Below are positions 26,571 to 29,181 of a stretch of 64,000 nt of DNA, one piece after another (the first letter of the stretch is position 1; each line of letters begins with the position of its first letter). This stretch comes from a virus, in IMG/VR virus record IMGVR_UViG_3300005077_000011, positions 21,002 to 85,001 of that record. The stretch is one strand, 5' to 3'. The position numbers and the translations under genes were made by a program. The notes under the pieces are model-generated. The model was not told where the DNA came from, did no database searches, and saw only the letters and a list, made by a program, of their open reading frames with translations.

Positions 26571-27686
26571 ATGAAACTTAATGTTCCTATTTTTGGTCAA
26601 CGAGATTCTAGATGGGCTAATAAACCGCTAGGATCTTCAAGTAGTACTCTTGGTGGTTATGGTTGTCTTGTGTCCTGTTTAGCTATGCTTTGTAAATATT
26701 ATGGAAAAGACACAGATCCAGATAAATTAAATACTGCTTTAGTAAATATTAATGGTTTTGCAGCTGCTTCAACAACTCCAACTCAAAAGAATTTGTACAA
26801 ATGGTATGAAGGTATAACTAAATTATATTCTGATATTGCTATTACAAAGCTTCAAGCAACACCAGCTGCTCTTACTACAACAGATTTTAATGCACTTAAA
26901 GCAGAAATTGATGCAGGAAGACCTGTAATTTTACAAGTTGATTTTATTCCAGCCACTGCTTTTGTAGACATGCACTTTGTTCTTCTTACTGGATATGAAG
27001 GCAACACGTATTATGTTAATGATCCATGGTATGGAGATAATGCTAATTTGAATAGATATGGAGATCCTGCTATTACAATTCAACAGTACGTATTTCATTC
27101 AGGACCAGTTCCTTCAATAGGGAGCGCAGATACAATTCCAGTTCTTAAAACAGATTTTGAAAAGATGAGAACAAAATGCGATATATTAGATGCTCAAAAT
27201 CCAACATATGCTCAATTAAAACAAATTGTAACAGAAGTAAATAATCAACTAGATGGTCTTAAAGCAGAAAATAAATCAAGAATTGAATTCATGCAAAAAA
27301 TAGCAGCAATGCTTGGAGTCTCAGCAAGTCCTGATGCAATCATAGGAGATTTAACGACAACATTGTCTCAAGAACAAGATACTACTAATTGTATGAAAGA
27401 TAAAGAAAATCTTCAAGTAGCTTTGAATACAGCAAATACAACTATTCAAACAAAAGAAGAAGAAAGAAAAGCTGCTGCTAATCAAGTGCTTACATTAACA
27501 GCCACAAATATTTCTTTGACTACTCAGTTTAATGAAATGACAACTGATCGAGACAAATATAAAGAACTCTACAGTATTGCACTACAATCTAAAGGAAAAC
27601 TTTCTCAATTTACAAAGAAAGAAATATCTAATTACTTATTTAAGAATTGGTTCAATTCTAAAGCATTTGCGAAGGAGGCAAAATAA
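26571..27686 (+). CDS. Putative endolysin: C39-like cysteine peptidase plus coiled coil
   Basis: Q..GCLVSCLAM, HFVLLTGY, VNDPW (Cys/His/Asp triad); heptad-rich C-terminus; next to a holin-like gene. Confidence 0.6.
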   Translation: MKLNVPIFGQRDSRWANKPLGSSSSTLGGYGCLVSCLAMLCKYYGKDTDPDKLNTALVNINGFAAASTTPTQKNLYKWYEGITKLYSDIAITKLQATPAALTTTDFNALKAEIDAGRPVILQVDFIPATAFVDMHFVLLTGYEGNTYYVNDPWYGDNANLNRYGDPAITIQQYVFHSGPVPSIGSADTIPVLKTDFEKMRTKCDILDAQNPTYAQLKQIVTEVNNQLDGLKAENKSRIEFMQKIAAMLGVSASPDAIIGDLTTTLSQEQDTTNCMKDKENLQVALNTANTTIQTKEEERKAAANQVLTLTATNISLTTQFNEMTTDRDKYKELYSIALQSKGKLSQFTKKEISNYLFKNWFNSKAFAKEAK

Positions 27687-27687
27687 T

Positions 27688-27966
27688 ATGAGTAAAGAAT
27701 TAACAGAAGCAGTAAAAGAATTTGTTCGAACTTTTTCAATTGGAGAAGTTCTTACTATTATTGGTGTGCTTGGCATTATCGCTGCAGGCATTAATAAAGA
27801 GTTGGGTACATTTGTTATTCAATGGAATGTAGCAGGAGCACTTCTTGTAGCAGATTCTATTGTTAACATTAAGACAGCTCTCGGCAGAGCTCTTGATAAA
27901 TGGCTTCATGAAAAAGATGTAAGATCACCTTTTGATTTAAGAGGTCTAGATTCACTTATAAAATAA
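27688..27966 (+). CDS. Putative holin
   Basis: SD AAGGAGG at ATG 27688; two hydrophobic segments and a charged C-terminus. Confidence 0.55.
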   Translation: MSKELTEAVKEFVRTFSIGEVLTIIGVLGIIAAGINKELGTFVIQWNVAGALLVADSIVNIKTALGRALDKWLHEKDVRSPFDLRGLDSLIK

Positions 27967-28082: not shown

Positions 28083-28253
28083 ATGAAACAACTATCTAAA
28101 GAGTTGTTTGAAAAAATTCTTAGCGATGCTAAAACTCAAAAAGAGTTAGCAGCTTTGTATAAACCATTTCAAGATATTGGCTACTGTTTCAGCCACACTC
28201 AATTTCTTGACTTTATAAAACGAGCACATCAATTACCGAAAGGAGGTGAATAA
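28083..28253 (+). CDS. Small hypothetical protein (56 aa, not in ORF track)
   Basis: SD AGGAGG; MKQLSKELFEKIL...PKGGE*. Confidence 0.65.
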   Translation: MKQLSKELFEKILSDAKTQKELAALYKPFQDIGYCFSHTQFLDFIKRAHQLPKGGE

Positions 28254-28254
28254 T

Positions 28255-28533
28255 ATGAATTTAAAGAATAATAAAGTTGTCCAGAAAGTAATTACTATAA
28301 GTTCAATTACTATTGTAATTGGAATACTTGGATGGATTTCTTTTGTTACAGTGAGAAATGAAGTAAAAAAGTATACTGAATCTTGGCAAGAAATTCAATT
28401 CGCTAAAAATCATCCTATGCTTGTCGGAGCGATCCGTGAAAAGTATGAGCTTGGTTTGAAAGCTTTAGATCAAATGGCACGAGAAGAAGTAGAAGTGTTA
28501 TCACCGCTTCCACAAACTGACCGGTCAAAATAA
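28255..28533 (+). CDS. Single-pass membrane protein; N-terminal part of a predicted frameshift fusion
   Basis: SD GGAGGTGA; hydrophobic ITIVIGILGWISFV; ends TCA AAA TAA. Confidence 0.75.
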   Translation: MNLKNNKVVQKVITISSITIVIGILGWISFVTVRNEVKKYTESWQEIQFAKNHPMLVGAIREKYELGLKALDQMAREEVEVLSPLPQTDRSK

Positions 28534-28579
28534 AACCGCTAACAAATGCTCCCAGTGTTAGCGCCAAAGTAGGGGGCGT
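28524..28579 (+). other. Predicted -1 frameshift signal: A_AAA plus H-type pseudoknot
   Basis: Stem 1 28537-44 with 28556-63 (8 bp); stem 2 28546-53 with 28572-79 (8 bp, 2 GU); 6-nt spacer after the AAA codon. Confidence 0.7.
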
Positions 28580-28592
28580 AAATCTAAAGTCA

Positions 28593-29003
28593 ATGACTTT
28601 AGTGCTCATTGAAAAAGAATTGAAAGGTAGTCCAATGGAAGGAGAAGCAGAATCTTTTCTTGAAGCTGGAAAAAAATATGAAGTTGATCCTTTATTTCTT
28701 GTTGCTATAGGCTATCACGAAAGCAAATATGGAAAAGCCTATTCATCAGAAGTAAACGCTCTACGACATAATTATGCAGGCGTCATGACTTTCAATGATG
28801 GAATTCGTAGATTGCGCAAATATACTTGTTGGAAAGATGCTATATTTGACCAGGCTAGAGTCATCAGAGAAATGTATCTGGACAAAGGAAAAGATACTAT
28901 AGAAAAGATATGGTATACATATGCTCCGCCTTTGGAAGTTACTAATGATAGTTGGGGTCCTTCAGTAGCAAGGAAGTATCAAGAGCTACTAAATCATTTT
29001 TAA
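28593..29003 (+). CDS. Glucosaminidase/lysozyme-like cell-wall hydrolase domain (frame open from 28521)
   Basis: AGKKYEVDPLFLVAIGYHESKYG, HNYAG, TIEKIW..YAP; no SD at its own ATG. Confidence 0.7.
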   Translation: MTLVLIEKELKGSPMEGEAESFLEAGKKYEVDPLFLVAIGYHESKYGKAYSSEVNALRHNYAGVMTFNDGIRRLRKYTCWKDAIFDQARVIREMYLDKGKDTIEKIWYTYAPPLEVTNDSWGPSVARKYQELLNHF

Positions 29004-29013
29004 AGGAGAAACT

Positions 29014-29181
29014 ATGAAAGACATGATGAACAGTGTTCCTCAAAGTCTTAGAAAAGCTATAGAATCTGAGGAAAAAGAATCTAAAGAATTGGAGACAATT
29101 CGTCGAGAAGATGAGCGGAAGTTTGTACAGTCAATGCGTCATGTAATAGATACGGACGGTTACATTAAGCCAATGGCTTAA
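29014..29181 (+). CDS. Small hypothetical protein (55 aa, not in ORF track)
   Basis: SD AAGGAG; open frame MKDMMNSV...KPMA*. Confidence 0.6.
   Translation: MKDMMNSVPQSLRKAIESEEKESKELETIRREDERKFVQSMRHVIDTDGYIKPMA

Follow-up and report, generated by a model that had tools for sequence, protein, structure and literature searches.

Programmed frameshifting in tailed phages is known chiefly from the genes of tail chaperones and capsid proteins. In the tail chaperone pair G/GT (lambda-type) and in T7 10A/10B a −1 frameshift gives, in a fixed ratio, much of a short product and little of a C-terminally extended one; the G/GT frameshift sites mostly have no defined pseudoknot. SAR endolysins (P1 Lyz, R21 of phage 21) and secreted endolysins cross the membrane by means of a hydrophobic segment at the N-terminus and need no large-hole holin to do so; the transmembrane (TM) segment of the SAR type is weakly hydrophobic, rich in Gly, Ala and Ser, and leaves the membrane on depolarisation.

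The IS1 and IS3 elements use heptamers of the forms A_AAA_AAA/G, A_AAA_AAC and G_GGA_AAC, and tetramers A_AAA/A_AAG (PMC4066793). With the IS3 pseudoknot in E. coli, A_AAA was the weakest of six active tetramers (range 0.26–5.6%), and A_AAC was not among the shift-prone ones (PMC4066793). Among wall hydrolases, SagB of S. aureus has 284 aa, with a soluble construct comprising residues 32–284 (bioRxiv 10.1101/2020.05.21.109470). Lysis functions packed into the same DNA have been described in phivML3, where two overlapping genes yield a lysin and a holin-like protein and no fusion (PMC3111421), and in Ms6, whose lysA contains a nested in-frame second lysin (PMC3111421). The PRFect paper mentions a lysin and for this cites the phivML3 case. 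A full-text literature search, with most subscription journals lying outside it, returned capsid and tail frameshifts and none joining an anchor to a wall hydrolase, which agrees with the statement of the original prediction that no case like the present one was described.

We have analysed a 64-kb stretch of DNA (here, the window) from an uncultivated freshwater phage; the IMG/VR virus record to which it belongs has 89.9 kb and an estimated completeness of 96%, and the GC content of the window is 32.6%. At one locus in the window a pseudoknot-stimulated programmed −1 frameshift most probably fuses a TM anchor to a GH73 wall hydrolase, judging from sequence comparison. As far as our search extends, the mechanism is known and its use for a phage wall hydrolase is new. 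The upstream open reading frame (ORF1), the slip site and the pseudoknot are laid out as follows.

28240..28249, + strand: Shine-Dalgarno (SD) sequence AAGGAGGTGA of ORF1, read from the sequence, strong, 8 nt 5′ of ATG 28255
28255..28533, + strand: ORF1, 0 frame, from ATG 28255 to stop TAA 28531–28533; 92-aa membrane protein, the product made if no shift occurs
28288..28353, + strand: predicted single N-terminal TM helix, approximately residues 12–33 (Kyte-Doolittle 19-residue window, peak 2.16, residues 7–34)
28527..28530, + strand: slippery tetramer A_AAA (0 frame tcA AAA), on which tRNA-Lys can re-pair one base back
28531..28536, + strand: spacer TAAAAC of 6 nt, read from the sequence, containing the 0-frame stop
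28537..28544, + strand: pseudoknot stem 1, 5′ arm CGCTAACA, 8 bp, covarying with the 3′ arm
28546..28553, + strand: pseudoknot stem 2, 5′ arm ATGCTCCC, (AT)GCTCCC, in the loop of stem 1; conserved core 28548–28553
28556..28563, + strand: pseudoknot stem 1, 3′ arm TGTTAGCG, pairing with 28537–28544
28572..28579, + strand: pseudoknot stem 2, 3′ arm GGGGGCGT, GGGGGC(GT); conserved core 28572–28577

The 3′ end of ORF1 reads ...GAC CGG TCA AAA TAA. The −1 frame has a TGA at 28518–28520 and is then open from 28521 to 29003 (160 codons). The two frames thus overlap at 28521–28533 only, and a shift must take place on tcA AAA, before the stop. Its product, ORF1 residues 1–92 joined to the −1 frame, would have 249 aa. 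Several statements of the original prediction were borne out when recomputed: a 92-aa TM-protein ORF ending TCA AAA TAA, a −1 frame open from 28521 into a glucosaminidase domain, a 249-aa product with the junction as quoted, and an H-type pseudoknot 6 nt past the AAA codon, both stems of which we found as described. The pseudoknot had also been called GC-rich for this genome; positions 28534–28580 have 53% GC versus 32.6% for the window.

ORF1 has a Lys-rich N-terminus, one hydrophobic helix that includes several Ser, Thr and Gly residues, and then a helical tail of ∼55 aa. An alignment shows this TM-plus-helical design in all ORF1 homologs with whole sequence, along with a common motif W-x-E-x-x-F-A-K/Y-x-H/Y-P-x-L-V. 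No family match to ORF1 was found in Atlas, Pfam or PHROGs. Because the N-terminus follows the positive-inside pattern, an N-in / C-out topology is predicted, and the hydrolase of the fusion would lie on the wall side. Immediately upstream, a 56-aa ORF (28083–28257) stops with a TAA one base 5′ of the ORF1 ATG (TAATATG); given this junction and the tight packing, the two are probably translationally linked. A gap of 117 nt stands 5′ of the 56-aa ORF.

The downstream part of the locus has the following features.

28530..29003, + strand: −1 frame as read after the shift, 157 codons plus stop TAA 29001–29003
28530..28583, + strand: linker over the pseudoknot, predicted to be disordered (AlphaFold2 pLDDT 45–50, residues 1–20 of the −1 frame)
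28584..28622, + strand: conserved N-terminal helix of the hydrolase domain (LKSMTLVLIEKEL), a confident helix in the AlphaFold2 model (residues 22–34)
28650..28952, + strand: GH73 glucosaminidase domain (PF01832), with a candidate catalytic Glu at 28719–28721

The Pfam match (Glucosaminidase, PF01832) covers residues 44–144 with E=1.9e-7 and 32.2 bits against a cutoff of 30.2. Matches in PHROGs were to endolysin and tail-lysin families, and profile matches in PDB were to LytB, AtlE and a phage hydrolase. The AlphaFold2 model of the −1 frame (pTM 0.72) was matched by Foldseek to the glucosaminidase domain of a C. difficile endolysin and to LytB; the match to 8yxk_A (TM 0.65/0.69) confirmed the GH73 fold. 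Residue E67, in an HES motif, is invariant in the alignment of homologs and aligns with the Glu of LES in LytB; we take it to be the catalytic Glu of the (H/L)ES motif of the GH73 family. The hydrolase frame contains no signal peptide and no TM or hydrophobic segment of its own.

If the frameshift is programmed as we propose, a single mRNA would give rise to two proteins with a common N-terminus. Most ribosomes would end at TAA 28531 and release the 92-aa protein, a type II (N-in) membrane protein. A fraction would stall at the pseudoknot, which begins 6 nt downstream, move one base back on A_AAA (28527–28530) and read on in the −1 frame. On A_AAA the A-site tRNA-Lys would shift, and on heptamers both tRNAs. 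The 249-aa product would consist of the TM helix, the ORF1 ectodomain, a flexible linker encoded by the pseudoknot and a GH73 domain outside the membrane. We infer that the shift happens, as well as its efficiency, the topology and the role of the products. As A_AAA is weak in E. coli, the fusion may be a minor product, or the efficiency may depend on the host, whose tRNAs may behave differently.

To define the pseudoknot strictly, we required a stem 1 of ≥7 bp with ≤1 G-U pair and a stem 2 of ≥5 bp with ≥4 G-C pairs; these criteria were applied uniformly, yet they are post hoc, chosen once the structure had been seen. In a scan of both strands of the 64-kb window (128 kb) this pseudoknot was the sole site that passed, and when the 70 nt 3′ of the slip site were dinucleotide-shuffled 2000 times, no shuffle contained such a structure. 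The pseudoknot in the window is more than chance would give. Its loops (L1 1–3 nt, L2 2 nt, L3 8 nt) suit the H-type. The nested-fold minimum free energy (ViennaRNA) was not better than that of shuffles in the window (z = −0.02), and nested-fold energies beat shuffles in no locus except L036; since ViennaRNA does not model pseudoknots, this z was given no weight either way, and the evidence comes from comparison across loci rather than from single-sequence thermodynamics. Rfam has no family at the pseudoknot, and we saw no SD-like stimulator upstream of the slip site. The stem-loop was also considered as an intrinsic terminator and rejected, there being no T-run 3′ of it and no entry for it in the terminator scan. 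Stem 2 (28548–28553 with 28572–28577) pairs a CUCCC-type with a GGGAG/GGGGG-type sequence, i.e. an anti-SD-like with an SD-like element.

A word-index search returned ten close homologs of the hydrolase (53–76% identity), all called as proteins of 122–155 aa, and an exhaustive phmmer search added P0013 (49%) and P0015 (35%). We compared the gene layouts of 13 loci, each set in its own sample context, and 11 of these also at the DNA level; the samples differ. These loci are related to each other, and counts across them are not fully independent. In 13 of 13 loci an ORF of 50–111 aa stands 5′ of the hydrolase, and with respect to this ORF the hydrolase is in the −1 frame. In each of the 11 loci with DNA a slippery motif is situated at most two codons from the end of the upstream ORF, the 0-frame stop comes 1–2 codons past the motif, the −1 frame is open for 160–193 codons, and a structure follows the motif 4–8 nt 3′ of it. 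The motifs are distributed as follows.

A_AAA: window, L002, L007, L011, L034 (5 loci)
A_AAC: L012, L033 (2 loci)
A_AAA_AAA: L003, L006, L035 (3 loci)
G_GGA_AAC: L036 (1 locus)

We observed that the string GTCAAA is invariant in seven loci (window 28524–28530; L002, L007, L011, L012, L033, L034), its G being the third base of differing 0-frame codons (CGG, CAG, CCG, TCG). This suggests that nucleotide identity itself is constrained immediately 5′ of the slip site, which re-pairing of tRNA-Ser in the P site would not explain.

No in-frame fused homolog was found by exhaustive phmmer among 1.84 billion representatives; distant phmmer matches of 200–270 aa, examined as possible fused relatives, were rejected as FlgJ-like and without an ORF1-like N-terminus. 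A search of isolated-phage DNA gave no match, and a search of isolated-phage proteins gave only ∼32% identity to tail lysins of Bacillus, Staphylococcus and Listeria phages; among isolated phages the nearest, all of them distant, have Gram-positive hosts. Scans of IMG/VR gave no close relatives. Scans of metagenomes and genomes gave one known locus; the other matches were GH73 genes that are distant, rich in GC and set in unrelated surroundings, and none showed a TM ORF or the frameshift layout. No prophage form was found in these scans. The sequencing runs in which pieces of the phage occur come from aquatic and freshwater-sediment metagenomes (DNA, fragments only); a search for RNA runs and proteome data gave none.

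Support for the pseudoknot also comes from the way its arms have changed. In the seven close sequences 90.8% of cells pair, versus 31–48% when the 3′ partners are slid by 1–3 columns; five pairs have changed on both sides, one of them in stem 2 (U-A, C-G, U-G). None of 500 shuffles attained the observed pairing or covariation score. When ten sequences were parsed by hand, pairing held in 69 of the 70 cells that make up the 7-bp core of stem 1, and single positions showed as many as four pair types; the hand parse was needed for L006, L035 and L003, where MAFFT misaligned the 5′ arm of this stem. The stem-1 arms are unrelated in sequence among loci, e.g. GCTAACA, GCTTACA, GGTCAAC and GCCAGC, and the divergent loci pair as GGTCAAC/GTTGACC, GGTCGAC/GTTGACC (with a G-U wobble) and GCCAGC/GCTGGT. 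Several compensations are synonymous on both arms when read in the −1 frame, among them Leu CTA→CTT with Val GTT→GTA and Thr ACA→ACG with Asp GAT→GAC, and are not explicable by protein coding.

The strict definition of the pseudoknot was passed by 8 of 11 loci and by at most one of 2000 shuffles. The loci that failed, L007, L003 and L036, have weaker or different structures: stem 2 is only 4 bp in L007, the stems are shorter in L003, and in L036 the structure 6 nt past G_GGA_AAC is of another kind, a GC-rich hairpin of great stability (z = −3.7). This hairpin (L036:1282–1335) has 9 bp, with an inner hairpin, and a free energy of −21.8 kcal/mol; it stands in place of the pseudoknot. L036 is the most distant member with DNA (49% identity); the stimulator appears to have been replaced there and the recoding kept. 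A covariance model built from the seven close sequences (R1) recovered only those seven when used for a search. The original prediction had proposed that slip site and both stems be checked for conservation and covariation in homologs; a slip motif is present in 11 of 11 loci, stem 1 covaries, and so does one pair of stem 2, which strongly supports its main reading of a −1 frameshift fusing anchor to hydrolase.

Is the sequence between the slip site and the hydrolase domain translated? Codon-position divergence over the 19 codons from the pseudoknot to the methionine of the MEG motif was 0.39/0.21/0.52, compared with 0.32/0.21/0.52 for the domain. The pattern over the pseudoknot stretch was flat, at 0.47/0.37/0.48; a linker constrained by an RNA structure should look like this. 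By this measure the sequence upstream of any start is evolving as coding sequence. The distance from the slip site to the motif [VI]DPL is 146, 152, 155, 158 or 161 nt, in all cases 2 mod 3; a length that changes only in threes is unlike a non-coding spacer.

These data bear on the explanation that competes best with frameshifting, namely that there are two separate genes. The hydrolase would then start by itself at ATG 28593 or ATG 28635 and act as a cytoplasmic holin-dependent endolysin, with the pseudoknot serving as a regulatory RNA in which stem 2 (CUCCC with GGGAG), being anti-SD/SD-like, may gate initiation or coupling. We regard this as unlikely. It is true that gene callers give separate proteins of 122–155 aa in every relative, that possible starts lie nearby in L002 (an overlapping TAATG) and in L003 (an ATG past stem 1, 35 nt downstream), that a weak AAAGG(A) is found 5′ of the MEG methionine in many members, including that of ATG 28635 in the window, and that a fused homolog in one frame is lacking among the representatives searched. 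However, the hydrolase has no start codon that is kept across loci, nor one with a good SD. In the window, the 18 nt preceding ATG 28593 contain no SD, as the original prediction had said of the hydrolase's own ATG. The conserved helix at 28584..28622 stands 5′ of, or spans, each candidate start codon, and L011, L006 and L035 have no plausible start 5′ of it; in L011 the hydrolase frame has its first ATG, GTG or TTG inside the catalytic domain, and in L006 the sole start is a GTG within the conserved IEKEL helix. The GGGGG/GGGAG element and the nearest ATG are at least 15–16 nt apart, more than an SD would allow. Coding constraint 5′ of the starts and length changes in threes also speak against separate genes, as does the fact that slippery motif and spacer are kept even where the sequences entirely differ.

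Independent initiation may nevertheless occur alongside the shift. The start chosen by gene callers in the window is ATG 28635 (P0001, 122 aa; MEGEAE, with AAAGG upstream, 28620–28637); starting there would remove the conserved N-terminal helix. The MEG methionine is Leu in L003, L006 and L035, so that a soluble isoform is possible in some members only.

Slippage of RNA polymerase on the A-run, adding one A to some transcripts and so joining the frames, is a very improbable substitute for ribosomal frameshifting. Runs of seven A in L003, L006 and L035 make low-level transcriptional slippage conceivable there, but the runs are AAAA or AAAC in the window and six relatives and GGGAAAC in L036, i.e. 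too short or mixed, and such slippage gives no role to a structure conserved at ribosomal spacing. That the two frames arose from an indel error in assembly or sequencing, or are what is left of one gene that broke recently (a pseudogene), is barely credible in spite of the junction being within a short homopolymer: the same −1 arrangement is seen in 13 independent assemblies with protein identities of 49–76%, purifying selection persists on both ORFs, and a contig of another study, from an independent freshwater-sediment run, spans 28417–28567 with four substitutions and no gap, so that an indel artefact, which the original prediction had wanted excluded by read mapping, is excluded.

Programmed frameshifting being the preferred reading, we considered the gene neighbourhood with regard to what the two products might do. 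Upstream of the 56-aa ORF, on the same strand, are the following genes.

25269, + strand: tail fibre gene, first in the same-strand order
26571..27686, + strand: Peptidase_C39_2-like protein of 371 aa (Pfam E=9.1e-18), a candidate wall peptidase
27688..27966, + strand: small holin-like membrane protein of ∼92 aa, hydrophobic segment at residues 13–40

The order on this strand is tail fibre, C39_2-like, holin-like, 56-aa ORF, ORF1 with the hydrolase, 55-aa ORF, dnaB (29378) and primase. Relatives keep this order, with a gene of 92–96 aa at the holin-like position; L006 has an M23 peptidase for the C39-like one. The original prediction had placed the gene in an early first operon rather than in the lysis cassette. 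This was not supported: the gene follows the tail fibre, peptidase and holin-like genes, with dnaB after it, and a promoter scan (27 sites versus 27.5 expected) was uninformative for operon placement. Its suggestions of a set ratio of the two products and of superinfection exclusion likewise found no support. The position just after a peptidase and a holin-like gene makes a lysis role more likely, and our best guess is that the enzyme, tethered to the membrane, takes part in lysis together with the products of the adjacent peptidase and holin-like genes.

One could speculate further that a self-contained lysis device has its stoichiometry set by the frameshift. The 92-aa product, as the abundant one, would form oligomers in the membrane in the manner of a class III holin or a scaffold and take in a few hydrolase-bearing subunits by the shared N-terminus, so that membrane lesion and wall cleavage would come from one recoded mRNA. 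We offer this as a tentative idea with a rather low chance of being correct.

Some other genes of the neighbourhood vary among loci. The wall-peptidase slot holds a Peptidase_C39_2-like gene in four loci (window, L003, L007, L011) and an M23 peptidase gene in L006 (L006:991–2202), a module swap at a fixed position. The 55-aa ORF 3′ of the hydrolase (window 29014–29181) is highly charged, has its own AAGGAG and no family match; an ORF of 54–56 aa is present 3′ of the hydrolase in L006, L007, L011, L012, L033, L035 and the P0009 contig. In L003 a weakly SprT-like gene (PF10263; L003:2253–2648) stands between the holin-like gene and the TM ORF, a position taken by different small ORFs in other relatives.

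Gene callers split or shortened the gene in 13 of 13 loci (122–155 aa, arbitrary starts); endolysin mining and annotation would thus miss the real product. The locus adds a probable family of recoded wall-hydrolase/lysis genes to the tail chaperone and capsid cases. It is an unusually clean case, in which at least four slippery motifs and unrelated stem sequences preserve one design.

The original prediction had likened the site to the tetramer plus pseudoknot of IS3-type elements, and the analogy is apt (PMC4066793). As in orfA-orfB of the IS3 family (IS3, IS911, IS150) and of IS1, a motif at the end of the upstream ORF is followed by a short spacer and a pseudoknot or hairpin, and the two predicted products are N-terminally coincident, as in IS3/IS1 orfA-orfB (PMC4066793). 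Unlike those of IS3/IS1, the phage products are a TM protein and a GH73 hydrolase; no transposase domain was found in the products of the locus, whereas a DDE transposase (orfB) and terminal inverted repeats are hallmarks of the IS3 family. The locus is not a mobile element and has only the recoding mechanism in common with one.

With phivML3 and Ms6 the locus has in common a lysis function in overlapping or nested frames that gives two products; these phages use separate or internal initiation, with no frameshift fusion, pseudoknot or slippery site. The likeness to G/GT and 10A/10B lies in a conserved phage −1 frameshift that would yield a short and a C-terminally extended product; there the resemblance ends, as the extension here is a wall hydrolase and the common part a membrane anchor.

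The predicted fusion resembles S. aureus SagB/SagA in having an N-terminal TM helix followed by an extracytoplasmic GH73 domain of similar size, and Foldseek gave a weak fold match of the hydrolase model to 6u0o_B. The sequence similarity is at family level only. Unlike the phage fusion, SagB and SagA are single-ORF cellular housekeeping enzymes, and SagB needs a partner, SpdC.

Finally, if the shift occurs, a predicted N-terminal TM segment and a wall hydrolase would be on one polypeptide, as in SAR endolysins. The latter are encoded by one ordinary ORF of lysozyme type, whereas here the enzyme is a GH73 hydrolase that would be joined to the anchor only by recoding, and the anchor would also be made as a free protein. 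Should the fusion be made, it would represent a new phage route to export and dose a dangerous enzyme, which would gain its anchor only in a minority of translation events, with free anchor protein alongside.
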